From Gilvibacter sp. (lineage in GTDB: Bacteria > Bacteroidota > Bacteroidia > Flavobacteriales > Flavobacteriaceae), in contig OZ255720.1 in NCBI GenBank assembly GCA_965277295.1, positions 215,376 through 279,375 on the forward strand: 64,000 bases of DNA, written 5' to 3'. This document shows, piece after piece, positions 27,438 to 59,400 of the stretch (the first letter of the stretch is position 1; every line of letters begins with the position of its first letter). Made by a program: the position numbers and the translations under genes. The notes under the pieces are model-generated. The model ran no database searches. It saw only the letters and a program-made list of their open reading frames with translations, and was not told the origin of the DNA.

Positions 27438-28761
27438 TTATAACAAATAAAAGGCACAAGCCGTAAATAAATGCAGGTGCGGCCAAGCGCATTGATGAAT
27501 GGTTTATGGTTAAAAACCAAAAGGCAAACAAGGCCATCAAATACGGGTTATGTCGTTGCCTAAGCCAATAAAATAACGGAGTAAAAAACAATAGTATTAA
27601 AGCCGAAAGTCCCAAAATACCGTGTTCAGATAGCAAACGGCTTACTTCGTTATGGGTTGCCGCCAAAGTGCCTGTGCGTTCGTACCTAAATTCCTTAATC
27701 TTACCCACGCCAATACCAGTAACTGGTGCCTCGTAAAAGGCTTCGAGTTCTCCCGAAATTAATTCAGATCTACCCGTTGTAATATCTTGTTTTAAACGTC
27801 CGGCAGCATCCCTATTACTGTAGCGTTTATCTATTAATCCCGTGGTTTGTATACTGGTAAATCCCCAAGTAAGCACAAGCCCCACAACTACAATTAATAT
27901 TTTAGGAAACAGGCGGGCCTTCATCCTAAAACTAGAGGTCCAATATAAAAATAGAATAAAAGTTATAGCACAAATAGCCGCCGTAAGTACTCCTCCACGC
28001 GAGAAGGTTACGATTGCCCGATAGCTCATAAAAAATAATAAGACCAAATCGATTATATTAATAAACCTACTGCTTATAGTAAACAGTCTAGTAATTAATA
28101 TAAACATGCCTAAACCTAAAATAGTGGCTACTTGATTAGGGCCAAAGCCTCCTGAGGTTCTAAAGTTAGATTCGGTTCCGTTTAAGGCATCTTTTATATC
28201 TGGAGTGTACAAATACAAAAACACCATGGTGGTTACTATAGGTAATAAAATTGCCAACAAAATATGTTGTAATTGAGTTCTTGTAACGCGTCTATGGTAC
28301 ATATATATAGCAGCAATCCCCAAGCAAAAAGGGCCGCTTAAATTAAAGATTACCGCCGTTCTAAAGTTGGTTTCGTAGTTTAGATTTATTGCCGAAAAGA
28401 TGATTCCTGGCACCAGAGCAAACAAATATCCCCAAAATGGGATAGATTTTAGTGAAGTACCGCGATAGACCATACCAAGCAGCAAGAAGAATATTACGGC
28501 ATACTTACCTGTTTCGTAAAAAAGCACACCTCCAGTCATTCTATAGAACACCTCAGCCCCCGTAAAATAGGCTGCCGCAATTAGAACTTCGTTATTTTTA
28601 TTACCCTTGGCCAGTACATATACTAAAAAGATTCCCAAGCTTGCCAAAAGTATAAGGGTAGAACTAGGTCTAAATAAATACACACTAAAAGCAATAGCCA
28701 CGTGCAACAAAATTAATTGTACGTAGGTAACTTTTTTAATTGGTTTTAGAACCTGCCTCAT
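27394..28761 (-). CDS. O-antigen ligase/polymerase-family membrane protein (WaaL-like)
   Basis: About 12 TMs; T.SRGG, GIG.G, THN...LL.E.GI.G (PF04932-type) motifs. Confidence 0.8.
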   Translation of the reverse strand: MRQVLKPIKKVTYVQLILLHVAIAFSVYLFRPSSTLILLASLGIFLVYVLAKGNKNNEVLIAAAYFTGAEVFYRMTGGVLFYETGKYAVIFFLLLGMVYRGTSLKSIPFWGYLFALVPGIIFSAINLNYETNFRTAVIFNLSGPFCLGIAAIYMYHRRVTRTQLQHILLAILLPIVTTMVFLYLYTPDIKDALNGTESNFRTSGGFGPNQVATILGLGMFILITRLFTISSRFINIIDLVLLFFMSYRAIVTFSRGGVLTAAICAITFILFLYWTSSFRMKARLFPKILIVVVGLVLTWGFTSIQTTGLIDKRYSNRDAAGRLKQDITTGRSELISGELEAFYEAPVTGIGVGKIKEFRYERTGTLAATHNEVSRLLSEHGILGLSALILLFFTPLFYWLRQRHNPYLMALFAFWFLTINHSSMRLAAPAFIYGLCLLFVINEKKPSLHRKQFKA

Positions 28762-32619: not shown

Positions 32620-33993
32620 CTATTTTGTTGTTAATGCCTTATAAATGGCCTCTGAACTGTCTTTTTGTGCTACAATAATACTAAACCAATCGCTAACCGT
32701 GGTGCCCATATTGGCCTCTAATTTAGTTAACAATTGCGGTACATCGTCCTTTGAATTCCACCATAAAACAACTTCTTTATTTGGCATACTTCTAAAGTGC
32801 TGAAAATTATAAATACTATCTACAGACCAAGGAGCCGCATTGGGCTGGTCGTAATTTATATAAATACACGGTTTGTTAAACATACCAAAATCGAAAGCCA
32901 TGGTAGAACCTACGTTTACAACCGCATCGCAATAATACGCCACGCTTACCAACAAACTAACATCCTGCTGTGTTGGATAAACCGCCGACCAAATTGCCGA
33001 ATTAAAATTCCAAAGTGGTGGCGCTTCTTTTATTAATTCAGGAAAGGTATTTATAACAGCTTGATACCTTCCCGAAACATCTACAGGACATCGTCTAAAT
33101 AAAATTTGATACTCCTGCTGTTTCCCAGCAGCAATAATTCCCTGCGCTAAATCGCGTAAATATTCAGGGTCTTTAGGCGATGTATATTCGTCGTCACCAG
33201 AAAAACAAATAATCTTTCGCTGGGGATCCAAACTATAGCTGTTGTAGAATGTCTCTTTGGAAATAATAACTTTGGGGTCAGAATAGACCTCGAACTGTGG
33301 TGTGCCAGTAATAACTACCTGCTCTGGTTTAATTTCTGGGTAAAACTCGATTAATTCGGCTTGCATATAATTAGACCAAACCAAATAATAATCGGCCTTT
33401 AAAGCCAAACGCGCCTTGGGCACATTGTCCCAAGAATAAATAACAGTATAGGTTTTAATTCCTAAATCTTTCGCGGCAGCAAAAATAATTGCCGCCTTTA
33501 ATGCTCGTTGATGCGTGCAAAATAGCACATCGATATCTAAATCTTTTAGTTGATTGGTTACTTGAGTGTAAAATGGGTTTTTTCGCAGCTGTTTATTATA
33601 GGCCTGTTCTAGTTTTTGAATTTTGCCGTAAGCACTATAAAAATTAGACATTAGGGTAATTAGCCCGTAAAAAACTTTAAGTTTTATTCCCGAACGCTTT
33701 TTATGCCACAGATATAAAATAGTGTTGTTGTTAGTTATTTTGGCATTGTGTTTTAACCTGCACAAATGAATTAACTCTCGCAGGTACTTTTCTTTTATTG
33801 GTTCTGCATACTACGGAATTTCTAAGGTTGACTCCAGATTAATTTGGGCCTCGATTGCGCCTATTGTATCGTCGTCAAAATTATGGTACAAATGTAATTT
33901 GGCCGTTCTATTTTTAAAAACTCGCGAGTACAAATAATTGCGAATCCCAACCCCGTCAGGGACAAAAAGTAAGACGTTTTTTTTATAAGCCAT
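32620..33993 (-). pseudogene. Orphan GT-B glycosyltransferase (candidate sialyltransferase) with an in-frame TAG at 33811-33813
   Basis: ORFs 33811..34002 and 32620..33765 share one frame; decoding through gives LEIP*YAEPIKEKYLRELIHLCRLK with one stop only (codon 61 from ATG 33993); HQR, SWDN, TGTPQFE, GSTM motifs. Confidence 0.8.
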
Positions 33994-35110
33994 TAAAGTC
34001 AATAAACTGTTTTTGATGATCTATTTGCCAGAGTGATTCTTCTTCTAAGCTTTTAATAAACTTCTGATTTGCATCTCCCTGACCAAACTGTGTTTGTTGA
34101 TTATCCAATTCTGGTAAGATTCCATTTAGTGCGGCAGTTATGTCTTGAGCATTGTAATCTATATTTATAATATGATCGTGTTGTGCTCTGTTGCGTTGTC
34201 TAGAACCAATATCTATAGTTGGAACCCCATAATAGGGAGCTTCTCGAATTCCAGCGCTCGAATTGCCAATAATAAAATCGGCCCGCTTTAACAGGGTTAA
34301 AAAATATTCAAAACGAATAGACGGAAACACTCTAAAATTAGGCAATTCCTTTAGCGATTCGTACTCCTTTAAAATAGCGCCACTGCCTAAATCATTATTG
34401 GGGTAGATTACAACAAAATTTCTAGAACTTGCCTTTAGACCAGCAACAAATTTGGTGGCATGAGATTGCATTTGCTTAGCCTCTGTTGTTACGGGATGAA
34501 ACAAAACAACCCCGTAATTATCAAAATCTATTTGATAATGTTCACGCACAGCCTTAATATTAGGTAAGTTTTTAGAAAACATAATATCGATGTCTGGCGA
34601 ACCAATAGTATAAATTGACTCAGAAAGCTCGCCCATTTGCTCCAAACGCTGTTTTGCTAATGCATTCGAAACATAGTGAATATGGCTCATTTTACTGGTA
34701 GAATGCCGTATTAGTTCGTCTATAGTACCAGACACTTCGCCACCTTCTATATGCGCGACCAGAATATTATTTAACGACCCTACAATAGCTCCAGCTAAGG
34801 CTTCTACTCGATCTCCATGCACAACAATCATATCTGGATTTACCGTTTTTATATATTGCGAAAAACCACTTATGGTCTTCGCCAAGGTTAAATCCATGGT
34901 AGCTTCGCTGGTGTGGTTATTAAAGGGGTGCACGTTTTTAAAATTACAGCGCTCAACCTCTATTAGCGTGTACCCATAAGTTTCTAACAAGTGCATGCCC
35001 GTCACAAACAAATGCGCATTAAAGTTAGGATGCTCCTCTAGTATTTGTATTAACGATTTAATTTTACCAAAATCGGCTCGAGTTCCAGTAAGAAATACAA
35101 TATTCTTCAT
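33983..35110 (-). CDS. neuC: UDP-GlcNAc 2-epimerase (hydrolysing)
   Basis: TGTRADFG, HGDRVE, HIEGGE.SGT.DE.IRH, FHPVTTE, GNSSAGIREA. Confidence 0.95.
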   Translation of the reverse strand: MKNIVFLTGTRADFGKIKSLIQILEEHPNFNAHLFVTGMHLLETYGYTLIEVERCNFKNVHPFNNHTSEATMDLTLAKTISGFSQYIKTVNPDMIVVHGDRVEALAGAIVGSLNNILVAHIEGGEVSGTIDELIRHSTSKMSHIHYVSNALAKQRLEQMGELSESIYTIGSPDIDIMFSKNLPNIKAVREHYQIDFDNYGVVLFHPVTTEAKQMQSHATKFVAGLKASSRNFVVIYPNNDLGSGAILKEYESLKELPNFRVFPSIRFEYFLTLLKRADFIIGNSSAGIREAPYYGVPTIDIGSRQRNRAQHDHIINIDYNAQDITAALNGILPELDNQQTQFGQGDANQKFIKSLEEESLWQIDHQKQFIDFNGL

Positions 35111-35120
35111 AGTATAGGCC

Positions 35121-36164
35121 TTATTGTTGGACATCCCCTTTTTGCAATTGTACGTCGATTGGTAAATCTTTGGTGGCTTTTTTGCCTAGTAAATCGTTGT
35201 AATGTTCGGCTAAAATGTCACCGGTACCTGGGCGTTTCACCCAAATATTTTGCTTGGTAAATGGTTGGCCTTTTTTAATGGGAGCAATGGTACATACTGT
35301 TGCAAAAGCAAAGTCAATAGTAACCTGCTCTTCTTTTGCCGGTTCTTTTGTACCTCCACGCATTTGCCAAATTTCTTTGGAATTTATTATTAATTCTGCG
35401 CAGGCCTGCTGGTCCATACTACACACAATATCTGGACCTGTTCTGCCCATATGATCTGTAAAATGTCGCTCTAAAATAGATGCTCCTAAAGCGACTGCGC
35501 CTAGACAAGCATTGTTATTTAAGGTATGATCGGATAAACCAAACACGCGATCCGGAAAGGCTTCGTGCATTTGAGTCATCGCGCCAAATCTAACCAAATG
35601 TATAGGTGTTGGATACAAATTGGTGGTATGTAAAATGGCTACGGGTATCTTATGGGCATCGAATATAGCTAAGGCCTTGGCAATACTTTGAATAGTATTC
35701 ATCCCAGTACTCATAATAATTGGTTTCCCAAACGATGCCAAGTGCTCTAAAAGCGGATAATTATTACATTCCCCAGAACCAATTTTGTACGCCGCTACAT
35801 TAAAGGAGTTTAATCGGTCGGCGGCCGCTCTAGAAAAAGGCGTAGAAATAAAGATCATTCCCTGAGCTTCTACATAATTTTTTAGCGCTAGTTCGTCTTC
35901 TCTGTTAAGCGCACAGCGTTCCATTATATGATAAATAGAAACATTGGCATTGCCAGGAATTACTTTTTTGGCAGCTCCACTCATTTCGTCTTCCACAATA
36001 TGAGTTTGGTGTTTAACCACTTCGGCTCCTGCTTGCTTTGCTGCATCTACCATTTGTTTTGCCACGGCTAACGAACCTTCGTGATTAATGCCAATTTCGG
36101 CAATAACCAGTGGCGGATAATCCGAGCCAACCATACGCCCTGCTATATTTATAGATGGATTCAT
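35121..36164 (-). CDS. neuB: N-acetylneuraminate synthase
   Basis: [36 protein letters not shown]-terminal SAF/AFP domain. Confidence 0.96.
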
Positions 36165-36835
36165 AGTTTGGTAGTTTCTAAAATATATTTCGCATAATTT
36201 AAATCGTCCAGAGAATCTATATCGACTCCCGCATAAGGATGATCCACAATAAAAGGTATATTCGAATCTCCTAAAATAACCCCTTGTGCAATTAATTTGG
36301 CCTTGGTAATATAGAGCAAGCCATTTTCGCTGTACAACGGCTCCATATCTTGACTGCGTTGCCCCATACTATAATTAAAAGGGACAAAGCGATTATTTAC
36401 AATTTTACCCAGTTTGTCGGTATTTCTGGATACGGTCATTAGACTATCGGCATTGTGTTTGTTAAAAGCTGTAAGGGCATCTTGTAATAAATTTTTAGGG
36501 CGTAACGGATTTGTAGCCTGTAGTAAAATTACATTGTCAAAATTTTCTTCTAAACTACTAACAACATACTGTAAAACTGCAGCCGTCGTGGCAGTGTCTG
36601 TAGCCAGTTCAGCGGGACGCATTTGTACATGGGCTCCGGCAGCTGTAGCAATCTTAGCCAAGTCCTCGCTGTCTGTAGAAACCACTACTTTATTAATTAA
36701 CCGCGAATTACTTAAGGCGTAATCTATGCTGTGCACCACAAGAGGCTTCCCATTAAAAGCAATACCATTTTTGTTAGTTATTCGCTTGGAACCGCCTCTT
36801 ACAGGTATTATACAAATGTTATTCGTTGTGGTCAA
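36161..36835 (-). CDS. neuA: CMP-N-acetylneuraminic acid synthetase (acylneuraminate cytidylyltransferase)
   Basis: [37 protein letters not shown]. Confidence 0.93.
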
Positions 36836-36847
36836 AAATTATAGTTT

Positions 36848-37864
36848 TTAGTATTGTTTTGCTGCTTTAGCATCCAGACCTTTTTTTCGTAATATCCACT
36901 CCCAAATTGGACCTCGTGTTATAAGTTTAAAGATACTTTTTACCCACCAATTTTTTAGCCCGCTTACCGATTTTAATTTCTGACTAATTGGGCTATTAAA
37001 TTGCTGGCTTTCTTTTGGCTGATTTTGCAAAGTTTCTTGCATCCATGCTTCTAAAGTATTCCCCATATGATAAGCAAAACCAGTACTTGTAGCCAATCTG
37101 TATCCACCGGCATTAAAGGCGGGTTTATCTATAAACACAGTTTCGCTATCGCCTCCTAAAGCATAATTAGAGTGCTTTCCTGCGGGAGGGTCAAAAATTT
37201 CGCTTCTGTAGGTGTTTACAAAATGACCTGAACCTACACTAGCAGTACAATTGTCACTAATTAAACTTAAGGTTTTATCTAAGTGACAATCTTTATAAAA
37301 ATTAGGATTAGCAATACTTTTTTGAAAAGCGACTAAACTTTCACGGTCTAATGTTGGTGTAAACTTAAGTGCAGGCGAAAACGTATAACGCACCCATAAA
37401 TGGGCATTATAATATTTTAAAAACGTTGGAATAGGCACAGGACTAACAGCCGCAGCCTTAGGAAAAGCCTTAAAAATAGAATAAGTCGCCTCTTGCCAAC
37501 CCGACTTAAAAAGTACGTCGGCATCGGTAATGGTGACCAAATCAAAATCGTGTCCGTTTACCCCTTTTAATATGGCGTTTACTTTGCCAATATTTGGCGC
37601 GTGTATTAACTCGTGAATTTGACCATTTGCCAAAAGACTATCTAAATAACTTGTTGTCAGTGCATCGGATCCATTATTAACTATGGTAAAAAAGGTACGC
37701 TCATGACAGGTTTTTAGGAGTGAATCTACACTTAGCTTTAAAATTGCCAAGCTGTTTCTAAAGTAGTCTGTTTGATTGGGTATATAAATAGGAATTACCA
37801 CCTGATGAAAATAATCAGGGGCTAATTTTTCTTGATCCTTATTTGGGTTAAAACCACTTCTCAT
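36848..37864 (-). CDS. GT2 / GT-A glycosyltransferase
   Basis: VVIPIY, VNNGS, ITDAD DxD motif. Confidence 0.8.
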   Translation of the reverse strand: MRSGFNPNKDQEKLAPDYFHQVVIPIYIPNQTDYFRNSLAILKLSVDSLLKTCHERTFFTIVNNGSDALTTSYLDSLLANGQIHELIHAPNIGKVNAILKGVNGHDFDLVTITDADVLFKSGWQEATYSIFKAFPKAAAVSPVPIPTFLKYYNAHLWVRYTFSPALKFTPTLDRESLVAFQKSIANPNFYKDCHLDKTLSLISDNCTASVGSGHFVNTYRSEIFDPPAGKHSNYALGGDSETVFIDKPAFNAGGYRLATSTGFAYHMGNTLEAWMQETLQNQPKESQQFNSPISQKLKSVSGLKNWWVKSIFKLITRGPIWEWILRKKGLDAKAAKQY

Positions 37865-38736
37865 TCCGCTCTAAAATACGTTTTTAAACAATACTGGGGT
37901 TTTAACAACTGCTTCCATTTTGGGATAACCATTGAATGCTCTGGATAAGCTAGCCTCCAATTGGCCTGCTCCATAGCTAAAAGGCGTGATGCAATTCGGT
38001 GTAAAATCCAAGGGGCATGCACTCCCATAGCTTTAAAATTAACAATCATTTTTGCTCCAATACCTATATACTTTTTGCGCTGTAGGGACAGACGCTGATT
38101 AGCCCCATACTCTCTATAGTTGGCTAAGGGTTTATGTATATAAGCTACTTTGTATTTGTAAAAATAGCGCTGGTAAAAGTCTATATCTTCGCCAACTTTT
38201 ATATTGGTGTCAAAAACTAGGGGAGCGACCAAAGTATCTTTTTTAATTAGCGGAGTTGGCGACTTGGCTACCCATACCCCTAAGGCGTTCCAAAATACGT
38301 TGCCCGAGCGCTTATGAGCTTTTTCTGCAGAAGCGCCAATAGTTTGGCCCGTAGGTTTACCTTGTATATCTATTACTACAGCAGCACTATGAACCAAAGT
38401 AACCCCGGGCTGATTTGCAAAGACCTCTAATTGAACCTGCAACTTATCTTCGCGCCAAGAATCGTCGTCGTCTAAAATTGCGACATACTCCCCTTTCGCC
38501 AAATTAATTCCATAATTACGAGCAGAAGATAAACCGCCATTTTCTTTATAGTGATAAGTGCAATTTGTAAAATCTGCACAAATTGCCTCTGCGTAATTAA
38601 CCGACGAGCCATCGTCTATAACCAGAATTTCTAGATTGGTGTACGATTGCGCAGCTACACTAGCAATAGCCTCACGCAAGTAGGTGTCCCTATTGTAGGT
38701 AGTAATTATTACCGAAACCAATGGATTTTTTGCCAT
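37861..38736 (-). CDS. GT2 glycosyltransferase
   Basis: VSVIITTYNR, VIDDGS, N.GLSSARN.G, LDDDD, EDIDF. Confidence 0.92.
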   Translation of the reverse strand: MAKNPLVSVIITTYNRDTYLREAIASVAAQSYTNLEILVIDDGSSVNYAEAICADFTNCTYHYKENGGLSSARNYGINLAKGEYVAILDDDDSWREDKLQVQLEVFANQPGVTLVHSAAVVIDIQGKPTGQTIGASAEKAHKRSGNVFWNALGVWVAKSPTPLIKKDTLVAPLVFDTNIKVGEDIDFYQRYFYKYKVAYIHKPLANYREYGANQRLSLQRKKYIGIGAKMIVNFKAMGVHAPWILHRIASRLLAMEQANWRLAYPEHSMVIPKWKQLLKPQYCLKTYFRAE

Positions 38737-38740
38737 CACT

Positions 38741-39511
38741 TTAACGGGAGAATCTGTTTTTAATTCGTTTAATAACGCCGCCTATTGTATTGCGCTTTGC
38801 GGCAGACAAGTCTGCATTTAGTTGCATTAATTGGTTGTAATCAGGGTAATATTTGCCAAAATATTGTTTTAAAATTTGAGTGTCTTCCACTTCTTTTTTT
38901 GCCCTAAAAGCAGGGTCGTTACTAACTCCAGTCAAGTCAAAAAGCGTTAATGCTACAGGCACGTGAGAAAATTCAAACTGATCGCTAAAATAGCACTTCA
39001 TATAAAAAGCGCGATCTGCGGCAATTTGTAACGATTCATCCTGCAGACCCATGGCTTTAAAAACCGAGGTTTTAAAAAACGTACTCTGATGCGGTAAAGA
39101 CGACTTAAAAAAGAACAGCGGTGTTAACTTATCTGGATATTGTTTCCCGCCATTTGCGTAGGCATAATCTCCATAAATAATGTCCCCACTAAACTGCGGT
39201 GCGTTAATAAATTCGTGTAAAACACGATCTCCATTTAAAACATCACCACTATTTAAAAACAGTACATAATCTCCTTTAGCGGCCTGAATTCCTTTGTTTT
39301 GCGCATTAAAAATCCCGGTGTCGGGTTCGCTTACCCAATGCGAAAACAAGGTTTTATTATCTAGAATTACCGCTTTACTGCCATCGGTAGAACCCCCGTC
39401 GATAATTACAAATTCGTAGTTGGTATAACTTTGGTTTTTAACCGACTGAATAGTTTTTTCTAGCCCAAGCTTGTCATTATAATTTATTGTGATTATGGAG
39501 AGTAAGGGCAT
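38741..39511 (-). CDS. GT2 glycosyltransferase (WcaE-like)
   Basis: SIITINYN, IDGGSTDG, SEPD.GI..A.NKG, LNSGD, HQ. Confidence 0.92.
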   Translation of the reverse strand: MPLLSIITINYNDKLGLEKTIQSVKNQSYTNYEFVIIDGGSTDGSKAVILDNKTLFSHWVSEPDTGIFNAQNKGIQAAKGDYVLFLNSGDVLNGDRVLHEFINAPQFSGDIIYGDYAYANGGKQYPDKLTPLFFFKSSLPHQSTFFKTSVFKAMGLQDESLQIAADRAFYMKCYFSDQFEFSHVPVALTLFDLTGVSNDPAFRAKKEVEDTQILKQYFGKYYPDYNQLMQLNADLSAAKRNTIGGVIKRIKNRFSR

Positions 39512-39523
39512 AGACTGTGGTTA

Positions 39524-40498
39524 TTAATGATCTACCGCATTTGTCGCGACCATATGTGAAATCCATTGATAGGTTTTCTCTAAGCCCACTTGTAAAGGCT
39601 GGGTAGGCTTCCATCCCAATTTATTAAATATTAATTCGTTATCTGAATTTCTCCCGCGCACTCCTTCTGGACCTGGAATATTTGCTATGCTAATGTCTTT
39701 CCCAGACATAGAAATAATAGTTTTTGCAAAATCGTTTATGGAAATCATTTCTTCTGACCCAATATTTACTGGACCTACAAAATCGGACTCCATTAAACGC
39801 TGTACCGCTTCTAAACATTCGTCTATATATAAAAACGAACGTGTTTGTAGGCCATCGCCCCAAACTTCAATGCTTCCACCATTGGGAGTCTCTGCTACCT
39901 TTCTGCATAAGGCAGCAGGTGCTTTTTCCTTTCCGTTGTTCCAAGAACCTTGGGGTCCAAAAATGTTATGAAACCTAGCAATGCGAACATTTAAGTTGTA
40001 ATTGCGCTTAAAGGCTAAAAACATACGCTCACTAAACAACTTCTCCCAACCGTATTCGCTGTCGGGATCGGCAGGATAGGCAGAATCTTCTGCACATTTA
40101 GGATTGTTTGGATCTAGCTGATTGTACTCTGGGTACATACAAGCCGACGACGAATAGAATACCTTTTTTGCCCCTTTTTTAACTGCTTCGCTGGCAACAT
40201 TTAGATTTATTGTTGCCGAATTATGCATAACATCTGCATCGTTATCTCCAGTAAAAATATAACCAGCTCCTCCCATATCTGCAGCCAATTGGTAAATTTC
40301 GTCAACATCTTGATCGACCACTTGAGCAACAACTCGAGGGTCGCGTAAATCGCCAATAATAAAATCATCGGCAGGTAAATCTGTGTAAGCGTGCTGCACT
40401 AAGTCCACGCCTTTTACGTAGCAGCCTTGCGACTTTAAGAGTTTAACCAAGTGGCCTCCAATAAATCCTCCGGCGCCTAATACTAACGTTCTTTTCAT
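39524..40498 (-). CDS. GDP-mannose 3,5-epimerase-like extended SDR
   Basis: GAGGFIG, LAADMGG.G, SSACMYP, YGWEK, RFHNI.GP, EKAPAALCRK, GPEGVRGRNSDN match the GME family as recalled. Confidence 0.85.
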   Translation of the reverse strand: MKRTLVLGAGGFIGGHLVKLLKSQGCYVKGVDLVQHAYTDLPADDFIIGDLRDPRVVAQVVDQDVDEIYQLAADMGGAGYIFTGDNDADVMHNSATINLNVASEAVKKGAKKVFYSSSACMYPEYNQLDPNNPKCAEDSAYPADPDSEYGWEKLFSERMFLAFKRNYNLNVRIARFHNIFGPQGSWNNGKEKAPAALCRKVAETPNGGSIEVWGDGLQTRSFLYIDECLEAVQRLMESDFVGPVNIGSEEMISINDFAKTIISMSGKDISIANIPGPEGVRGRNSDNELIFNKLGWKPTQPLQVGLEKTYQWISHMVATNAVDH

Positions 40499-40508
40499 GG
40501 TTGTACTT

Positions 40509-41732
40509 TTAATTTTTGGGGTTCGTTAAATTATAAAGCTCAAGATACAGGTTTAGGTACTTTTTTGCTTGATTTTTTTCTTGAAAATGTGCTTTGGCTT
40601 GGGTTGCAATTGCAGTGGCATTAAATACTGACTTTATTTTTGCAAACCTACTAATACTGTCGTGCAAACCTTGACCCGAAATACAACTAGACAAGCATCC
40701 GTTTTCTGCTTCGACAATATATTCTTGCATTCCACCAGTTTTAAAGCTAATCACGGGGGTGCCACAACAAAGTGACTCCACCATAGTATTGGGCAGATTA
40801 TCTTCTCGGCTAGGCAACAAAAGCGCATGGGCCTTTTGGTAAATCGCTACCATATTTTTAGGGTCACTTATATAACCTAAGGGTTCAATGTTTACCAAGG
40901 GGTTGGTTATATTTAGTTCGCCCTTTCCTATGGTTAAAAGAGTTATCGGTTCTTTATAGTCATTTAGAGCGTCTACGACTAAGTCTACACCTTTTCTTGG
41001 GTTCTCTAAATTGCCCGCCGTGTATAACAGAGTAAGCGCTTCTGGATGACTTGTGCTGTTTTGCTCTGGACAGTACAAATTGGTATCTATAGTGTTGGCA
41101 ATATCTTTAAACAAGAGCGAATTATTAAAAACTTGAGAAGCTTTGGCCGCCGTTAACAACCAAGCCGATGGACTAACAACGGCGCCTAGCGTAAATGCCT
41201 TTAATGCTTGTTTTTTAATATCCCGTATTTGCTGTTCTAATGGAGCTGCCGCTTCTTTATTTATCTCGCTATCGTGCATATAATGAAACAAGCCTAGAAA
41301 AGGATTCATATCGTGCAAGGTCCAAACAATTGGCTTTTTACAATTTTTAAAAAAATTGGAATACGAAACCATATCGACAACCCAATGCAAATGAATAATA
41401 TCTGCCTCTTGTACCAATGGGTGTTCTAAAATATCTACTTGAGCAAAAGGTAAACTAGCCATTTCGCAATTCAACTTAGGCCTTAATAGACCCAATTCTT
41501 GGCTAAACTTTAATTCGTCACTCGGGTTAAATTTGTTTTTTATTTTCGCTATAAAGCTTGGTCTGTTATAACTAAAAAAGGAATCTTGAACTTGGTTATT
41601 ACCAAAATCTACGGTCAAATCTTTAGCCAAATAAGCTGCTTTGATTCCATTTTTTTGCTGCGCTTGCTGCAAGCGAAGCGCGGCAATTCCGGCACCACCA
41701 TGCTTGGAAGTATTAATATGTACAATTTTTAA
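40509..41732 (-). CDS. GT4 glycosyltransferase (WcaC-like); canonical start codon missing
   Basis: Frame reads LKIVHINTSKHGGAG from 41732; HLHW, WTLHDM, PSREDNLPNT.VES. Confidence 0.85.
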   Translation of the reverse strand, partial: LKIVHINTSKHGGAGIAALRLQQAQQKNGIKAAYLAKDLTVDFGNNQVQDSFFSYNRPSFIAKIKNKFNPSDELKFSQELGLLRPKLNCEMASLPFAQVDILEHPLVQEADIIHLHWVVDMVSYSNFFKNCKKPIVWTLHDMNPFLGLFHYMHDSEINKEAAAPLEQQIRDIKKQALKAFTLGAVVSPSAWLLTAAKASQVFNNSLLFKDIANTIDTNLYCPEQNSTSHPEALTLLYTAGNLENPRKGVDLVVDALNDYKEPITLLTIGKGELNITNPLVNIEPLGYISDPKNMVAIYQKAHALLLPSREDNLPNTMVESLCCGTPVISFKTGGMQEYIVEAENGCLSSCISGQGLHDSISRFAKIKSVFNATAIATQAKAHFQEKNQAKKYLNLYLELYNLTNPKN

Positions 41733-42487
41733 TTCGATTGCTTCGCTGTTATTTTATGATATAATTTTCTGCCAAACTCTTTTAAATATCGCTTAGCATA
41801 AACTTTTGGGTAGCCGTAGATTAAATAATCTGAACTTACTTTAAACAATTGCTTAACCAACCAAATTGGCGATTGTTTGATTGTTTTTCGCCAAGAGTGA
41901 TCCCATAAATGCACCGCTACAGTATTAGCAGTTATATAGTCGTTATAAGGCTTGTTGCTATCTTGATAAGGCAAGGGATAAAAGTACTCAGGACTAAAAA
42001 TCACTTCGTTTTCTTGTAATGCTTGAGTATTAACCAATCCCTTAAAAGTATGTGTAATTACAGGCGGGGAATACCTATTGTAACGCTCATTTTGGTAAAA
42101 TGCAGTCATGTCGTTAAAAAAACGATGTTTGGCAATTCCTCCAAAAATTGCAAAATTAGGGCGCTCAGGCACTTCGTCACCAACAAAAAAATTAAATGCT
42201 AATAGTTGGTCTAAAGGTTTTAATAATAACATATCGGTGTCTAAATAAATCCCTCCAAATTCGGCTAATACTTGAACACGAATACAATCTGCTGCAAAGG
42301 CGTATTTTTTGTTTCTAATGGCATCTTTATAAAAGCTGTTCCAATAGGGTTTGCTGTTGTGCTCGTTCCATTCTTTAAATTCATAATCGGGGCAAAACTG
42401 CTTCCAAGATGCTAGGCATTGTAAGCCAATCTCACTTTTTGAGCTTCCTCCAAACCAACAGCTGTGTATAATTTTAGGAATTGCCAT
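41729..42487 (-). CDS. GT32 (OCH1/capsule synthesis, DxD) glycosyltransferase
   Basis: IPKIIH.CWFG, YAFAAD.IR, GGIYLDTD, H.W..SW. Confidence 0.9.
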   Translation of the reverse strand: MAIPKIIHSCWFGGSSKSEIGLQCLASWKQFCPDYEFKEWNEHNSKPYWNSFYKDAIRNKKYAFAADCIRVQVLAEFGGIYLDTDMLLLKPLDQLLAFNFFVGDEVPERPNFAIFGGIAKHRFFNDMTAFYQNERYNRYSPPVITHTFKGLVNTQALQENEVIFSPEYFYPLPYQDSNKPYNDYITANTVAVHLWDHSWRKTIKQSPIWLVKQLFKVSSDYLIYGYPKVYAKRYLKEFGRKLYHKITAKQSN

Positions 42488-43561: not shown

Positions 43562-44439
43562 GTGTTATAAATGCAAGAGCAGTCCAAAACAGTACCGCAT
43601 TTTATTCTGGTTGGAGCCATGAAGGCAGGAACAACAAGCCTTAGGTTTCATTTAAACAATCACCCCCATATTCATTTACCCCAGCGAGAGCTCAACTTTT
43701 TTAACAACCAAAAAAACTTTAATCGAGCTTTAGCATGGTATCAAGAACAAATTGCAAAAGACGCTAAAGATTCGGCGACATTGTTTGGCGAAAAATCTCC
43801 AGCCTATACTTTAGAAGAGTTTGTTCCCAAAAGAATGCATGAGCTTTTGCCCGACGCTAAATTAATCTGGGTATTACGCAATCCTGTAGATAGAACCTAT
43901 TCTAATTATTTACACGAATTAAAGCTAGGGCTGGAAAATCTAAGTTTTAACCAAGCCTTAAATGCCGAACCTACACGGGCAGTTAAAACCATTAAATACG
44001 CCTATACAACAAACAGTATGTACAGCCAGCAAATCGAGCGTTTTTTGGAGTTCTACCCGAAGTCCCAATGTTTTTTTGTGCTGTTCGACGATTTAATTAA
44101 GCCCTATGGCAGCACTCATGTTTTAAACGATTTATTTAACTTTTTAGGAGTCGATACCAGTACATTTAACTACGTAAACGGAGTCAGAAATAAAACAACA
44201 TTGCCTAGGTATCCCAAGTTACTTTTTTATGCCAATAGATGGGGTTTAACTAAATCTTGGAAAATTAAAAAGGCGTTAAACACCTTTAATTTTAAGAATC
44301 AAAAGCCGGGTTATCCTAAATTAACGCAAACACAGCGAGCGGAATTAGCAAAAAAATTCGAACCACATAACGCAAAACTAAGCGCGCTAATAGGCAAAGA
44401 TTTAAGCGGTTGGAATAGGTAGTTTAGTTGGTGTTATAA
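43562..44439. repeat. 9-bp direct repeat GTGTTATAA flanking the inverted sulfotransferase
   Basis: Copies at 43562-43570 (abutting ATG) and 44431-44439. Confidence 0.5.
43571..44422 (+). CDS. PAPS-dependent sulfotransferase (heparan-sulfate 3-OST/NDST-like motifs)
   Basis: 5'-PSB VGAMKAGTTSL, GEKSPAY, 3'-PB LRNPVDRTYS. Confidence 0.88.
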   Translation: MQEQSKTVPHFILVGAMKAGTTSLRFHLNNHPHIHLPQRELNFFNNQKNFNRALAWYQEQIAKDAKDSATLFGEKSPAYTLEEFVPKRMHELLPDAKLIWVLRNPVDRTYSNYLHELKLGLENLSFNQALNAEPTRAVKTIKYAYTTNSMYSQQIERFLEFYPKSQCFFVLFDDLIKPYGSTHVLNDLFNFLGVDTSTFNYVNGVRNKTTLPRYPKLLFYANRWGLTKSWKIKKALNTFNFKNQKPGYPKLTQTQRAELAKKFEPHNAKLSALIGKDLSGWNR

Positions 44440-48476: not shown

Positions 48477-49385
48477 TTACTTAAATAATCGATTAAAAAA
48501 GGAATTTTTTGCTTTTTTGGGATTGGATGGTGCTGCAATTTCGAACATAAACTTAAAATCTTGATTGTGCGAAACTAAACTATTTCTATATTCTGCTAAC
48601 ATGGGCTGTAGCAAGATATCATCTCCTTTTGCAATTCTTTTTATGGTCGCATTGGTAAAATGAATAAATACGACTGGGTATATATTATTTATCAAGACCT
48701 CTCCATTGGCAACAGTGCGTTCACATTCTACTGTATTCCAATTGGAAACATTACAACCTTTGTGTTGTATTTGTGCAACATCGTCGTGGAAATATACTGG
48801 CATTAAATTTAAAAACACCTGATCTACATAATAACCATCTTCCTTACTCATCTTGTAGGAACATGCTTTTAACCACCAATCTAAAACGTGAATAGCGCTA
48901 GAAGTGCATCCAAAAAAACCAGCATTGTAAATTCCTCCTATAAATAACAAATCAAAATTTACAGCATCAATTTCCGGTTTACTGGAACGCCAATGCGGTG
49001 TAAGAATAACTTTATTTTTGTCTAAGAGCTCAAACAAAAATGTAGGATCCTGATAAAAATATAAATCTGGATCTAAAAAAAGTGCCTTATTACATCCCTT
49101 TTCTTCTAAGAGGTATTTAAGCCACAATGGCTTTAATGCCCAGCGCAGGTTGCTTTCTTTGTCGGTTTCATACTTTTGAATGAGTCCATAATCTTCAGGG
49201 TAACGTTCTTTAATAGTTTTAAGGGCATGAACCACTATGTTTTTATAAGACAACGGGGTTTCAATTTGATCTACCACCAATACATGAAAGCTTGCATCAG
49301 TATTAAATCGCTCTAAAGAATCATAAAGCGCTTTGATATAGAAAAAATAATTTGCCGTAATTATGGTGCAAAAGGTCTTTCTCAT
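48477..49385 (-). CDS. Putative GT8-like glycosyltransferase
   Basis: CTIIT.NY, LDPD DxD, YNAGF, DQ..LNL.P. Confidence 0.65.
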   Translation of the reverse strand: MRKTFCTIITANYFFYIKALYDSLERFNTDASFHVLVVDQIETPLSYKNIVVHALKTIKERYPEDYGLIQKYETDKESNLRWALKPLWLKYLLEEKGCNKALFLDPDLYFYQDPTFLFELLDKNKVILTPHWRSSKPEIDAVNFDLLFIGGIYNAGFFGCTSSAIHVLDWWLKACSYKMSKEDGYYVDQVFLNLMPVYFHDDVAQIQHKGCNVSNWNTVECERTVANGEVLINNIYPVVFIHFTNATIKRIAKGDDILLQPMLAEYRNSLVSHNQDFKFMFEIAAPSNPKKAKNSFFNRLFK

Positions 49386-50284
49386 TAGAGTCTTTTATAA
49401 ACACGTAAATATAAGTAACGCAAAACTAACGGAACTGGCAGGCCCACTTTAAATACGGAGCGCTTGCCCATACCATAACGTTTGTTGTGCATTTCTTGCA
49501 AGATCCAATCATATTTAGCCACTTGAAGCCATCTGCCATAAAAAGACAAGTTCCGTTGTATCACGGCTTTATATTCTGCCACGCGCCTTTTTTCTTCTAA
49601 AAACGACTTAGCGGTTCGGGTGGAGGCCGCATGCTTTCTAAACTTATTACACGCTTTACTTAAATATGCGATATCACCGTGGGCTAACAATTTTGACCAA
49701 AGCAACCAATCCCCACAGTATTTGTAATCTACAGGAAAGTCAAGTTTTAGGAGTTGGTCTCTACGAACAAGTGCCGCACTTGCATTTGGAATGGTATTTC
49801 TAAAAGCCAGGTAATTTCTTACCTCATCGGGGCCGGAATTTTTAAAATCACTTTGCCAGCGTTTTGCGTCCAAACCATCGGGCCAGCGGTTTCTTCCTAA
49901 TACCTTACCATCCTGATCGATGATCTGTGAAGCTGTATATGCCAAAACTGTCTGGGGTTCTATCGTTGCAATTAGCTGCTTTAAAAATTCCGGATGAGCG
50001 CTGTCATCACTTTCTGCTATCCAAACTAACTCGCCTTTTGCTATTTCCAAACCCTTTTGCCATTGCTTAAAAGGCGAACCCGAGTTCTGCTCATTGACCA
50101 GATAATTGCTTACATTGGGGTGCTTGGCAAACGCTGCCAATAACTCGCGACTGTTATCGGTAGAAGCGTCGTCCAGTAAAATAATTTCGTAATCTGTAAA
50201 CGTTTGGTTAATTATACTGTCCCAGCGCACTTTTAAAAAACGAGCGTGATTGTAATTGGGCAGTATGACAGAAATTAAAGGCAA
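49385..50284 (-). CDS. GT2 glycosyltransferase
   Basis: SVILPNYN, LDDASTD, NSG, IAESDD, GDW. Confidence 0.9.
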   Translation of the reverse strand: MPLISVILPNYNHARFLKVRWDSIINQTFTDYEIILLDDASTDNSRELLAAFAKHPNVSNYLVNEQNSGSPFKQWQKGLEIAKGELVWIAESDDSAHPEFLKQLIATIEPQTVLAYTASQIIDQDGKVLGRNRWPDGLDAKRWQSDFKNSGPDEVRNYLAFRNTIPNASAALVRRDQLLKLDFPVDYKYCGDWLLWSKLLAHGDIAYLSKACNKFRKHAASTRTAKSFLEEKRRVAEYKAVIQRNLSFYGRWLQVAKYDWILQEMHNKRYGMGKRSVFKVGLPVPLVLRYLYLRVYKRL

Positions 50285-50302
50285 ATAGAAATATTTTGTT
50301 AT

Positions 50303-51091
50303 TTACTTAATTCTAAGTTTTCTCCTAATCCTCGTGAACAAACTTGGCTTATCTTGATTTTTAATCGAATTGTATTTTTTTAACAACTCAAAAAAAGCAT
50401 TCTTATATAGCTCCATATGCTTAGTTTGAACATATTCAATATTCTGCTTCATCATTGCTTTATCAAAACTTCTAATCATTGAATCGCCAGTTACTCTATA
50501 ATCAAAACAAACTTCCTGTAAGTAGTAAAATTGATATTCTGACGCCACTACTCTAAGCCAAAATTCCCAGTCTTCGTGACCTTGGTGAGGCATTTTTGTA
50601 TCATAGGCTCCTAAGTTTGTAAAAACTTCTTTGCGTATTATGGCACAAGCATCTATAAAATTGTGATATAGCATTTTAAACTTATCAAATTCGCCTACTT
50701 TCCAGATTCCATTTTTTTCTCCAAAATACTCGGCATCGCCATAAACAACGCCAATTTTGGAATCTTGCTCCAAGAACGGAATAGCCTGTTTTGCATATTT
50801 GCGTCGCACTTTATTGTCTGAATCTAAGGGTAAAACATATGTGCCAACCGCCTTTTGAATTCCATAGTTTCGTGCAGTACCTAAACCTCCATTTTCTTTT
50901 ATATAATACTTAAACCGGCTGTCCTTTTTTACCCAATCCTTGGCAATACTTTCCACATCATCTGGTGAGCCATCATTAACAATAATTGCTTCCCATAATT
51001 CATAATCCTGATCAAAAACGGATTGTAGCGTTTGTTCAAGCGTTTCCTGAGAATTATAGCATGGAATTACAATACTTAGTTTGGGTGTCAT
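50303..51091 (-). CDS. GT2 glycosyltransferase
   Basis: SIVIPCYN, VNDGSPD, GL..ARN.G, LDSD, EDWEFW. Confidence 0.92.
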   Translation of the reverse strand: MTPKLSIVIPCYNSQETLEQTLQSVFDQDYELWEAIIVNDGSPDDVESIAKDWVKKDSRFKYYIKENGGLGTARNYGIQKAVGTYVLPLDSDNKVRRKYAKQAIPFLEQDSKIGVVYGDAEYFGEKNGIWKVGEFDKFKMLYHNFIDACAIIRKEVFTNLGAYDTKMPHQGHEDWEFWLRVVASEYQFYYLQEVCFDYRVTGDSMIRSFDKAMMKQNIEYVQTKHMELYKNAFFELLKKYNSIKNQDKPSLFTRIRRKLRIK

Positions 51092-51092
51092 A

Positions 51093-51959
51093 CTAATATT
51101 TTAAGTTAAGATAAGACTTATATAAAAATTGTAGCAAAGCATTTTTCCCAAATCTGTTCTTACAAATTTTAACAATTAATCTCCTTCGCTTTTTCCGCAC
51201 AATCTCCATCTCATTTGGATTTAAATGAGGAATAATTACCTTATAAAAATTTAAATACAAAAATGTTTGGGTGTGCGCATTTAAACGCTGATAAACTCCC
51301 TGAGCATGAACCCTATAAACAGACATTACGCTATCCAGACATTTTATTTTTTTATTTCTTGCCACCAAATAATATAAAGCTAAATCACCAAAATTAACTT
51401 CCGTAAACCAACTTGGAATTGTAAAATCTTTTGGAATCCTAAACACAGCACTTGCCGTAGTAATAAAGTTGTAATGTCTTAACAAATCCGCATAACTATA
51501 AACATTATCCTCGGAAGGAGGAATTGGGTGGAGCTCTAAGTCTGAATCGTTTCTCAATACTTTTGCTCTGTGAAAACAAATCCCATAACTAGAATTTTGC
51601 TCCATAAAATCCACTTGTTTTTGCAGTTTTAATGGGTCCGTCCAGTAGTCGTCACCTTCACAAAGCGCAACATATTTTCCCCTGGCTACCTTTAAATTTT
51701 CCATAAAGTTAAAGCGACCCGTAGCATTTCCATTTATATAAATTACATCTTCTCTATTTCTTAAGAACAGTCGAATTTTATCGGAATGTTTTTGTGCGTA
51801 TTCCTGGCAAATTGCTCGTGTACCATCTGTACTATGGTCTTCACCTAAAATTATTTCGATCTTGAAATTAGTTTCCTGCATTAGGACACTATCAATGCAT
51901 TGAGCAATAAATTCCTCGTGGTTGTATGTAGTAATTAAAACGCTTACAGGAATATCCAT
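51093..51959 (-). CDS. GT2 glycosyltransferase
   Basis: SVLITTYN, GED.STDGT, CEGDDYW.D..KLQKQ. Confidence 0.92.
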   Translation of the reverse strand: MDIPVSVLITTYNHEEFIAQCIDSVLMQETNFKIEIILGEDHSTDGTRAICQEYAQKHSDKIRLFLRNREDVIYINGNATGRFNFMENLKVARGKYVALCEGDDYWTDPLKLQKQVDFMEQNSSYGICFHRAKVLRNDSDLELHPIPPSEDNVYSYADLLRHYNFITTASAVFRIPKDFTIPSWFTEVNFGDLALYYLVARNKKIKCLDSVMSVYRVHAQGVYQRLNAHTQTFLYLNFYKVIIPHLNPNEMEIVRKKRRRLIVKICKNRFGKNALLQFLYKSYLNLKY

Positions 51960-51965
51960 TAAGCT

Positions 51966-53015
51966 CTAATATTGATAATATGTGTATGGCAAACTAATTC
52001 CTGTTTTTCTTGCCAACCGTTCGTTTGACTCAATAAACATATTTTTTAGAAACGTTAAGATTTCATTCGGATAAGAAAACCTAATCTCTTGTTCATTGTT
52101 TTTAAGCTGTTTCGCCTTAGTAATATTTTCATTTTTGATTCTCGCATCTTTGTAAAGCAAGCTTTCTTCAATAGAAATATTCAACTCATCACAAAAATAG
52201 TCTTTAAGACGATGAAAGTTAGTTCCAGTGCTAAAAGATTGATTTCCTAATCCATGTACATGAGTTTTATTAAGCTCCCGCATATTATATAATTCGGTCA
52301 GGGATAAGGGTTTGTTATAATGGTCTAAATCCAATTCATAATCATCTAAACCTAGAACCTGAGATAACTTGTTTGTGAGTAAGCAGGTGTTATTTTCATA
52401 ACGCAACTTACCAGATTCATCTCGATAATTTTCAATACAAATAATTTCAATATTTTCGGCACCAAAAAGATTGGAATAAATATTATAAAGATAGTCGTAT
52501 TGAAAATCAAAAATAAAATTTCGATCTCGAGAATAGTAAATAAAGTCTAAGAAATCATTAAATGTTCCGTAATAGCCAATTTTTATAGCTTCTTTGTACA
52601 AAGACTCTATTAGGCTTCTTTGATTTCGAATTATCAAAACGATTTTTGTGCCCAATCCAAAGGCGTTAAATACTCTTTTGGCTTTTTCTTCGATTTCTAT
52701 TTGATCCGTTGTAAATGTAAAAGAAAGTAGCTCTAACGAAATACCACAAACTCTTTTGGTTTGATTAGTTTCAAACTTCTCGAACTCACTATTAAATGCT
52801 CTAGATATACCAAGTTTTGCTTTTTGGTAAGTGAAATTTTTACTGTATTGAAAATGATTTTCACAGGCTGATGCAATTTTAGGGTTTATGTAATCCACAT
52901 TTGAACCTACTCCAACCCCTAAATGATGAATTTGAGGATGCTTACTAAAGAAGTCTCGCTGCAGACTAGTAGACAAGTTTTTCGGCATTCCAATATGAAT
53001 ATATTTTGTCTTCAT
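51966..53015 (-). CDS. Divergent sulfotransferase-fold protein
   Basis: HIGMPK..STSLQ (5'-PSB-like), S.E.LS, IIRNQ....ESLY (3'-PB-like). Confidence 0.6.
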   Translation of the reverse strand: MKTKYIHIGMPKNLSTSLQRDFFSKHPQIHHLGVGVGSNVDYINPKIASACENHFQYSKNFTYQKAKLGISRAFNSEFEKFETNQTKRVCGISLELLSFTFTTDQIEIEEKAKRVFNAFGLGTKIVLIIRNQRSLIESLYKEAIKIGYYGTFNDFLDFIYYSRDRNFIFDFQYDYLYNIYSNLFGAENIEIICIENYRDESGKLRYENNTCLLTNKLSQVLGLDDYELDLDHYNKPLSLTELYNMRELNKTHVHGLGNQSFSTGTNFHRLKDYFCDELNISIEESLLYKDARIKNENITKAKQLKNNEQEIRFSYPNEILTFLKNMFIESNERLARKTGISLPYTYYQY

Positions 53016-53950: not shown

Positions 53951-53951
53951 A

Positions 53952-54611: not shown

Positions 54612-54613
54612 AA

Positions 54614-56370: not shown

Positions 56371-56423
56371 ATTTTCATTTTATTTATTCTACGATAAAGA
56401 TAATACAATGTATAGTACCAATC

Positions 56424-57479: not shown

Positions 57480-57550
57480 AATTAAATCAATAAATAAAAT
57501 ACAATAAGAAATAGGAGTTTATCTAGTCAAAAATAAATGTTTATCATGTA

Positions 57551-58186: not shown

Positions 58187-58192
58187 TTAAAA

Positions 58193-59398: not shown

Positions 59399-59400
59399 AA

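Follow-up and report, generated by a model that had tools for sequence, protein, structure and literature searches.

The 64,000-nucleotide stretch of Gilvibacter DNA analyzed here (the window) holds a glycan gene cluster in which one gene resembles plant GDP-mannose 3,5-epimerase (hereafter GME). This raises the question of whether the gene encodes a genuine GME and, if so, which sugar it contributes to a bacterial glycan and whether that sugar is sulfated, as a preliminary description of the sequence had proposed. The gene under study is the following.

39524 to 40498, minus strand, GME (GDP-mannose 3,5-epimerase), assigned from its match to Arabidopsis GME (AtGME; E value, 9e-93), its catalytic residues, and its predicted fold

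These coordinates correspond exactly to one open reading frame (ORF), running from ATG to TAA and encoding 324 amino acids. In a phmmer search against PDB sequences, the AtGME match (2c59) covered residues 6 to 317 and the Myrciaria dubia enzyme matched at 3.4e-91, whereas the next family, UDP-xylose synthase, reached only 2.6e-25, 68 orders of magnitude weaker. Pfam recognized only the generic NAD-dependent epimerase domain (Epimerase, 1.4e-40), and a search of NCBIfam returned no equivalog model for the ORF. Alignment with AtGME, whose residue numbering was calibrated on the K178R mutant chain 2c54, placed Ser118 and Cys120 of the SSAC motif at S143 and C145, Tyr149 and Lys153 of YGWEK at Y174 and K178, Lys192 of EKAPAA at K217, and Arg283 of GVRGRNSD at R306. 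Each motif of the catalytic set that the preliminary description had listed (SSAC, YxxxK, EKAPAA, GVRGRNSD) thus aligns to a catalytic residue of the plant enzyme; the roles of the Ser/Tyr/Lys triad, the Cys/Lys pair, and the arginine are those described in work on AtGM35E and MfGM35E (PMC6678494). The NAD-binding GxxGxxG motif reads GAGGFIG at residues 8 to 14, with G8, G11, and G14 invariant. When 32 homologues from bacteria and archaea of several phyla were aligned, neither the NAD site nor any of the catalytic residues S118, C120, Y149, K153, K192, and R283 varied.

An AlphaFold2 model of the ORF (pLDDT, 83; pTM, 0.85) adopted an SDR fold, and its 14 best fold matches in the PDB were GME structures only (TM score, 0.85 to 0.89; 41 to 46% identity). 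A chance ORF or pseudogene was considered and rejected, as was identity as a GDP-L-fucose synthase, since the ORF, the best match in the genome to the fcl model, scored only 107 bits, where the cut-off is 500. The features by which membership of the GM35E family (EC 5.1.3.18) was judged, namely, an SDR fold, the triad, the acid/base pair with its arginine, GMEs as the nearest relatives, and a supply of substrate, were all found. Judged by its sequence, the ORF at 39524 to 40498 is a genuine gene for GDP-mannose 3,5-epimerase, with its catalytic activity predicted.

Relatives of this enzyme proved to be widespread. A protein search with GME returned at least 8,000 significant candidates, many of them JGI records titled "GDP-D-mannose 3,5-epimerase," and relatives were found in the genomes of at least 522 species, mostly at 68 to 76% identity, from the Bacteroidota, Acidobacteriota, Chloroflexota, Pseudomonadota, and Deinococcota as well as one archaeon. 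Among 400 sampled Bacteroidota genomes, 27 carried GME, none of them among the 28 Flavobacteriaceae of that sample, and GME was likewise found in 0 of 18 other Flavobacteriaceae genera examined. The nearest named relatives, at 85% identity, are from Gilvibacter itself, in which only three of six congeneric genomes carry the gene. The preliminary description had remarked that few bacterial GMEs are characterized, and one such enzyme, MfGM35E (PMC6678494), was identified. Because GME is very common in bacteria, the enzyme itself is an ordinary one, and what is new at this locus is its occurrence in place of the gmd-fcl gene pair, together with a candidate L-galactosyltransferase.

The surrounding cluster was annotated with Pfam and NCBIfam. 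All genes from 24995 to 64000 lie on the minus strand, with one sulfotransferase gene as the sole exception, and they include about 20 glycosyltransferases, NeuC, NeuB, and NeuA, a DegT aminotransferase, WbqC, two acyltransferases, a methyltransferase, and TviB- and TviC-like enzymes. The genes that bear on the function of GME, apart from the sulfotransferases, are listed here.

24995 to 26389, minus strand, initiating phosphoglycosyl transferase (Pfam Bac_transf), at the cluster end
26424 to 27437, minus strand, GT4 glycosyltransferase (Pfam Glycos_transf_1), at the cluster end
27394 to 28761, minus strand, ligase or polymerase of the Wzy_C family (Pfam Wzy_C), at the cluster end
33983 to 36835, minus strand, NeuC, NeuB, and NeuA-like proteins of nonulosonic acid synthesis and activation (Pfam Epimerase_2, NeuB, and CTP_transf_3)
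36848 to 38739, minus strand, two GT2-type glycosyltransferases, 37861 to 38739 and 36848 to 37864 (Pfam Glycos_transf_2), in an order kept in other genera
38741 to 39511, minus strand, GT2 glycosyltransferase resembling GDP-beta-L-fucose transferases, a candidate L-galactosyltransferase (Pfam GT2, match to WrtF, synteny)
40509 to 41672, minus strand, GT4 glycosyltransferase whose stop lies 10 nucleotides before the GME start (Pfam Glycos_transf_1)
41729 to 42487, minus strand, GT32-like glycosyltransferase with a DXD region, first gene of the module (Pfam Gly_transf_sug and Gb3_synth)
58193 to 60246, minus strand, Wzt ABC ATPase carrying a glycan-binding domain at its C terminus, and a presumed Wzm (Pfam ABC_tran and Wzt_C)

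GME is tightly packed between two glycosyltransferase genes, with 10 nucleotides to the GT4 upstream and 12 nucleotides to the GT2 at 38741 to 39511 downstream (hereafter the GT2). The presumed Wzm permease has no Pfam match and was assigned from its position. The cluster of the congener G402 is syntenic with nearly the whole cluster of the window.

The genome, assembled as one 3.49-Mb contig (99.99% complete), could be searched for the routes leading to and from GDP-mannose. The preliminary description had advised looking for manB and manC elsewhere in the genome, and this search turned up manA (C1:2456621-2457535), a ManC guanylyltransferase (C1:533218-534270; domain match, 3e-88), and two phosphohexomutases of the PGM/PMM family; an APS kinase is also present. 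In contrast, the complete genome lacks gmd (best score, 70.7 bits against a cut-off of 415), lacks fcl, for which the best match is GME itself, and holds no Fkp domain, and no enzyme modifying GDP-mannose was found in it besides GME. From this set of genes, GDP-mannose can be made and GDP-L-fucose cannot.

To place GME within its neighborhood, 20 kb was fetched around each orthologue of the GT2 for comparison of the loci. Such orthologues (40 to 56% identity) occurred in 15 of 300 sampled Flavobacteriaceae genera. Eleven loci (L106 to L116) keep the order GT32, GT4, a slot, GT2, GT2, and GT2-like, followed by NeuB/NeuC/NeuA-like genes. A pair of ORFs, encoding about 370 and 360 amino acids, occupies the slot in most of these loci. 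In four tested loci, one of them from the congener G401, these ORFs were identified as gmd (TIGR01472; 594 to 599 bits, over the cut-off) and fcl (NF047922; 449 to 465 bits, with an insertion). Identity to the syntenic counterparts is 48 to 58% for the GT32-like protein and 37 to 43% for the GT4 (28% in L110), which is also present in G402, and about 30% for the genes in the NeuC/NeuB/NeuA-like position in other genera. Overall, no fewer than six further genera of the Flavobacteriaceae, as well as two congeneric species, carry gmd-fcl in the slot.

Each of the six Gilvibacter genomes scored for both genes carries exactly one of the two: GME without gmd in the genome studied here (G000), G402, G403, and G404, and gmd without GME in G401 and G405. 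Orthologues of the GT2 directly follow GME in G000, G402, and G403 and directly follow gmd-fcl in L106, L107, L108, L110, L113, L114, and G405, where the GT2 stands 1.15 kb after gmd; in L112, one extra ORF lies between them. GME is 85% identical among the congeners, as against 43 to 70% for the flanking glycosyltransferases, and the GT2 is 70% identical among the GME-type congeners and 52 to 55% identical to those of the gmd-fcl type. GME and a GT2 with the motif NSGD also occur as a two-gene island in other Bacteroidota; in L009/L013, an ECF sigma factor flanks the island on one side and a trmB-like methyltransferase on the other. These comparisons suggest that, in this lineage, a conserved flavobacterial glycan module had its gmd-fcl pair replaced by GME. 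Across the Bacteroidota, the two routes are not generally exclusive, because 12 of the 27 GME-positive genomes also hold gmd.

The gene following the slot was then compared with known fucosyltransferases. The best PDB match of the GT2 was WrtF of Rhizobium tropici (9OMH; E value, 3.5e-11; residues 17 to 177), a GT-A fucosyltransferase (PMC12595478), at a score barely above those of unrelated GT2 enzymes. Because this match is modest, the family assignment alone is only a lead. The best NCBIfam match was WcaE, a colanic-acid transferase inferred to add fucose, and its score of 88.8 bits is far below the cut-off of 369, which makes the GT2 a relative of the WcaE group rather than WcaE itself. 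D64 (in SEPDTG), the NSGD motif at residues 87 to 90, H141, and D166 of the GT2 align to D66, G89ADD92, H142, and D167 of WrtF, and the N(A/S)GD form of the donor site occurs in BF4306, WbdO, and WcaE (PMC12595478). H141 and D166 are invariant among the orthologues, and WrtF Asn143 corresponds to Gln142 in 18 of 18 of them, including those that follow gmd-fcl; WrtF Phe191 lies beyond the aligned stretch. The guanine-binding Asp and the donor-site motif of the GT2 fucosyltransferases (WrtF, BF4306, WbdO, WcaE, and GtfD) were thus found, as was genomic coupling to a GDP-beta-L-galacto donor, and the family score fell short.

Two positions of the GT2, 93 and 217, separate seven GME-linked from seven gmd-fcl-linked sequences. 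The GME-linked set does not form one clade in a FastTree phylogeny, many of the 120 nearest homologues have Asn93, and one probably GME-linked protein has Cys at this position. Asn93 and Tyr217 are therefore only a lead as specificity positions.

Collectively, these findings make it very likely that the glycan takes up an L-galacto sugar, because GME fills the gmd-fcl slot and a GT2 of the fucosyltransferase type follows it. L-Fucose is 6-deoxy-L-galactose, and the donors of both sugars are GDP-beta-L-galacto sugars made from GDP-mannose. With gmd, fcl, and Fkp absent and a fucosyltransferase-type GT2 downstream, L-galactose is predicted to take the place of L-fucose. In the proposed pathway, the supply of GDP-mannose would come from genes elsewhere in the genome, those for ManA, a phosphomannomutase, and ManC. 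GME would oxidize C4 with bound NAD+ through Tyr149, Lys153, and Ser118, the acid/base pair of Cys120 and Lys192 would invert C5 and C3, and C4 would then be re-reduced, giving an equilibrium mixture with GDP-beta-L-galactose as the main product. The GT2 encoded 12 nucleotides downstream, of the group of WrtF, BF4306, WbdO, and WcaE, would pull GDP-L-galactose from this equilibrium and place L-galactose where related bacteria place L-fucose.

The simplest reading, which we consider reasonably likely, is that GME-made L-galactose has naturally taken the place of L-fucose at one position of the glycan by way of the GT2. We infer that the GT2 uses GDP-L-galactose and that L-galactose rather than L-gulose is incorporated, and the kind of glycan, be it O-antigen, capsule, or protein O-glycan, is inferred as well. 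That the strain makes an L-galactose-containing glycan, as the preliminary description had suggested, is in line with the position of GME in the gmd-fcl slot next to the GT2, and on these genomic grounds a surface glycan probably carries L-galactose. The user of GDP-L-galactose could be another glycosyltransferase of the module, such as the GT4 or the GT32, both of which belong to families that include GDP-mannose users. According to the GME review, fucosyltransferases accept GDP-L-galactose (PMC8787198).

Other roles for GME have to be weighed against this prediction. GDP-L-gulose, the C5 epimer, is a side product of GME, and the equilibrium would shift toward it under the pull of a transferase specific for gulose (PMC8787198, PMC6678494), so that GME might supply the glycan with L-gulose, a role proposed in the case of bleomycin (BlmG) and of the gulolipid of Thermoplasma. 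We regard this as improbable: L-galactose is favored because the slot otherwise holds the synthesis of GDP-L-fucose and both donors are L-galacto sugars. Moreover, the GT2 is orthologous (50 to 57% identity) to the GT2 that follows gmd-fcl, and accommodating the L-gulo configuration, with its difference at C3, would demand more remodeling of the transferase than accommodating an added 6-hydroxyl. The same slot bears on the idea that GME runs in a catabolic or salvage direction, converting scavenged algal L-galactose by way of GDP-L-galactose to GDP-mannose. L-Galactose is a constituent of agar and porphyran, and the organism lives in the sea; however, the slot is a biosynthetic one, both immediate neighbors of GME are glycosyltransferase genes at 10 and 12 nucleotides, no kinase, nucleotidyltransferase, glycoside hydrolase, or transporter gene adjoins it, and the genome holds no Fkp-type pyrophosphorylase domain. 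Salvage is accordingly very unlikely.

The ORF might also encode a look-alike whose substrate is a different GDP-sugar, for instance, GDP-heptose or an intermediate of GDP-6-deoxyhexose. In favor of this, NCBIfam has no equivalog model for it, and a more distant GME-like subgroup (46 to 49% identity) adjoins gmd in some Bacteroidota, for example, in G260. The ORF studied here belongs instead to the bacterial group of 60 to 75% identity, all the residues used by AtGME are identical in it, and a 4-keto-6-deoxy substrate could not come from gmd, a gene that the genome lacks, which leaves the look-alike with a very small share of the probability.

The remaining question is whether L-galactose, once incorporated, would be sulfated. 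Three sulfotransferase genes lie in the cluster.

43571 to 44422, plus strand, sulfotransferase (Pfam Sulfotransfer_1/3), the only plus-strand gene of the cluster
57551 to 58186, minus strand, sulfotransferase (Pfam Sulfotransfer_4), after Wzt in a variable part of low GC content
61275 to 62042, minus strand, sulfotransferase (Pfam Sulfotransfer_2)

The preliminary description had counted four sulfotransferases, of which these three were confirmed by Pfam; no fourth was found among the unassigned ORFs at 48477 to 49385, 51966 to 53015, and 56424 to 57479 in a Pfam search with E values up to 1. The three differ in their conservation. The variable part with the gene at 57551 to 58186 has a GC content of 0.33 to 0.35, compared to 0.37 to 0.39 elsewhere, and this gene has no counterpart in 60 kb around the G402 cluster. 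The gene at 61275 to 62042 is 58% identical in G402 and has relatives of 26 to 28% identity in the fucose-type loci L106, L108, L111, and L114. The sulfotransferase nearest to GME, at 43571 to 44422 and 3 kb away, is matched in G402 by an orthologue of 54% identity that occupies the corresponding site. G401 and G403 to G406 have no such orthologue, and in L008/G403 the site is empty of it.

It has been suggested that one of these enzymes sulfates the L-galactose made by GME, for example at O-6, a position that carries no hydroxyl in fucose, to give a porphyran-like epitope. In favor of this, the three genes share one co-directional cluster in a genome with an APS kinase, the nearest of them keeps its site in G402, and a change from fucose to galactose would create a new 6-hydroxyl. 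Moreover, of the 80 best-matching GME loci, which come from a few related families, 13 have a relative of the nearest sulfotransferase no more than six genes away from GME, and some loci of Saprospiraceae and Chitinophagaceae have three or four sulfotransferases around GME. This association was rejected as evidence: in the unbiased sample of 400 Bacteroidota genomes, a sulfotransferase of this type lies within 20 kb of GME in 2 of 27 cases and within 25 kb of gmd in at least 5 of 240, an incomplete comparison in which the two frequencies are not distinguishable. Nor was a sulfotransferase found to be consistently linked to the L-galactose step, as expected for a sulfated L-galactan, since the nearest one has no orthologue in two of the four GME-type Gilvibacter genomes (G403 and G404). 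By this sequence comparison it is not an obligatory partner of GME. Fucose-type loci carry a sulfotransferase as well, the roughly 20 glycosyltransferases of the cluster imply many other acceptor residues, and no sulfotransferase can be assigned to any sugar.

The sulfated L-galactose of the preliminary description is thus unsupported; we consider such a modification unlikely, and the analogy with porphyran is conjecture. A more elaborate version, in which the switch from L-fucose to L-galactose was adaptive, the exposed 6-hydroxyl is sulfated by the enzyme of 43571 to 44422 in this strain and in G402 to give a porphyran-like L-galactose-6-sulfate, and Asn93 and Tyr217 are the residues by which the GT2 adapted, is less likely still.

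To our knowledge, L-galactose is rare in bacterial glycans. Literature searches for it in bacterial O-antigens and exopolysaccharides returned only amino-, uronic-, and deoxy-L-galacto sugars and plant papers, and no characterized bacterial L-galactopyranose transferase was found in the searchable literature. Closely related gmd-fcl and GME strains, with the same slot and a co-diverged GT2, would provide a natural comparison of how a GT-A fucosyltransferase scaffold meets a 6-hydroxyl, and from such a pair of strains one could learn which benefit the change brings to a bacterium in terms of antigenicity, phage receptors, or further substitution. A couple of GME and transferase for making L-galactosides has been explicitly called for in the GME review (PMC8787198).

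With regard to the kind of glycan, an O-antigen that depends on an ABC transporter would be consistent with the Wzm/Wzt pair, the Wzy_C-family protein, and the initiating transferase. The order of the module across genera, together with a GT2 fucosyltransferase, nonulosonic acid genes, and a methyltransferase, recalls by analogy the protein O-glycosylation loci of Bacteroidota (PMC8698959), and the T. forsythia O-glycan locus likewise has nonulosonic acid genes and a methyltransferase. The GT2 is not the phylum-wide fucosyltransferase of O-glycosylation, because orthologues of at least 40% identity are confined to those 15 of the 300 genera sampled within the family. It is nevertheless of the same GT2 GT-A type, for a GDP-beta-L-sugar, as BF4306 of B. 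fragilis, Tanf_01305 of T. forsythia, and Phep_4048 (PMC8698959) and as WrtF (PMC12595478), with which it shares the guanine-binding Asp, the N(A/S)GD donor motif, the His corresponding to His142, and the catalytic Asp. It differs in having Gln in place of WrtF Asn143, and its module differs from those with gmd-fcl and a GT2 fucosyltransferase in that the donor gene is GME.

In their sulfotransferases, the nearest parallels are the sulfated capsules of Vibrio sp. KMM 8419 (PMC11641403) and Cobetia marina KMM 1449 (PMC11766843), likewise marine Gram-negative bacteria with sulfotransferases in a glycan locus; a text search of these two papers did not register the term "L-galactose," and neither bears on sulfation of L-galactose here. 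The epimerase itself shares the extended SDR fold, the GxxGxxG motif, the triad, the Cys/Lys pair, and the arginine with both the plant GMEs (Arabidopsis, 2C59; Myrciaria dubia, 8SG0) and MfGM35E of Methylacidiphilum fumariolicum (PMC6678494). The plant enzymes have an N-terminal extension of about 28 residues that the Gilvibacter enzyme is without, and they serve ascorbate, whereas the Gilvibacter GME is predicted to serve glycan synthesis. The closest precedent for the predicted exchange of sugars is the Arabidopsis mur1 mutant, whose xyloglucan carries L-galactose instead of L-fucose (Zablackis 1996, cited by PMC8787198). In these gmd-deficient plants, as in the Gilvibacter genome studied here, the synthesis of GDP-fucose is missing and GME is present, and in the plants fucosyltransferases then insert L-galactose. 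However, mur1 is a laboratory mutant relying on a promiscuous enzyme, whereas the Gilvibacter locus would represent a natural exchange of genes that has become fixed, with a transferase that diverged alongside it.

Two residues of GT2 (window 38741-39511, minus strand), the candidate L-galactosyltransferase encoded directly downstream of GME, a GDP-mannose 3,5-epimerase, separate its orthologues by genomic context. Asn93, three residues past the donor-site motif NSGD, and Tyr217 are both present in all seven GME-linked orthologues and in none of the seven linked to gmd-fcl, the GDP-L-fucose synthesis pair. These residues may contact the 6-OH of L-Gal. However, Asn93 is also frequent in GT2 homologues beyond the 14 context-assigned sequences, and one probably GME-linked protein carries Cys rather than Asn at this position.

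GME and an NSGD-type GT2 also occur as a two-gene island in two Bacteroidia MAGs (L009:9075-12371 and L013), flanked by an ECF sigma factor and, on the other side, a trmB-like methyltransferase; this island is not part of any large glycan locus. Among other Bacteroidota, G228 has gmd paired with GME twice, on two contigs, with the genes approximately 1.5-2 kb apart:

C7:31920-35392, gmd and GME pair, copy 1
C8:336831-340790, gmd and GME pair, copy 2

Both routes are therefore able to coexist within one locus. A more distant GME-like subgroup (46-49% identity) was found in the gmd-containing genomes G260, G072, G180, and G188, and adjoins gmd in G260 (G260:C3:258657-260755). Members of this subgroup may use a different substrate.

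Within the window cluster, the GC content of positions 50000-58200 is 0.33-0.35, versus 0.37-0.39 elsewhere. Most window genes lacking a counterpart in the syntenic GME-type congener G402, compared over 60 kb around its cluster, fall within this stretch:

51966-53015, gene without G402 counterpart
53015-53950, gene without G402 counterpart
53952-54611, gene without G402 counterpart
56424-57479, gene without G402 counterpart
57551-58186, Sulfotransfer_4 gene without G402 counterpart

The stretch looks like a variable insert that was acquired separately. Elsewhere in the same genome, C1:1444045-1468146 has the appearance of a second glycan locus; three sugar-nucleotide enzymes of the SDR type are encoded there, along with a distantly related sulfotransferase paralogue (C1:1455864-1456454).

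A search of sequencing runs recovered window 38741-41672 completely in DNA runs whose species label also has oligo-dT selected RNA libraries; 21-40% of its words were present in marine metagenomes. A eukaryotic host culture may be the source of the assembly, or the Gilvibacter strain may live alongside such a culture.

Finally, four Wzx/Wzy-type GME loci of Saprospiraceae and Chitinophagaceae (L027, L035, L023, and L044) contain three to four sulfotransferases of different Pfam families no more than six genes from GME. These loci make good candidates for bacterial glycans that are heavily sulfated and contain a GME product.
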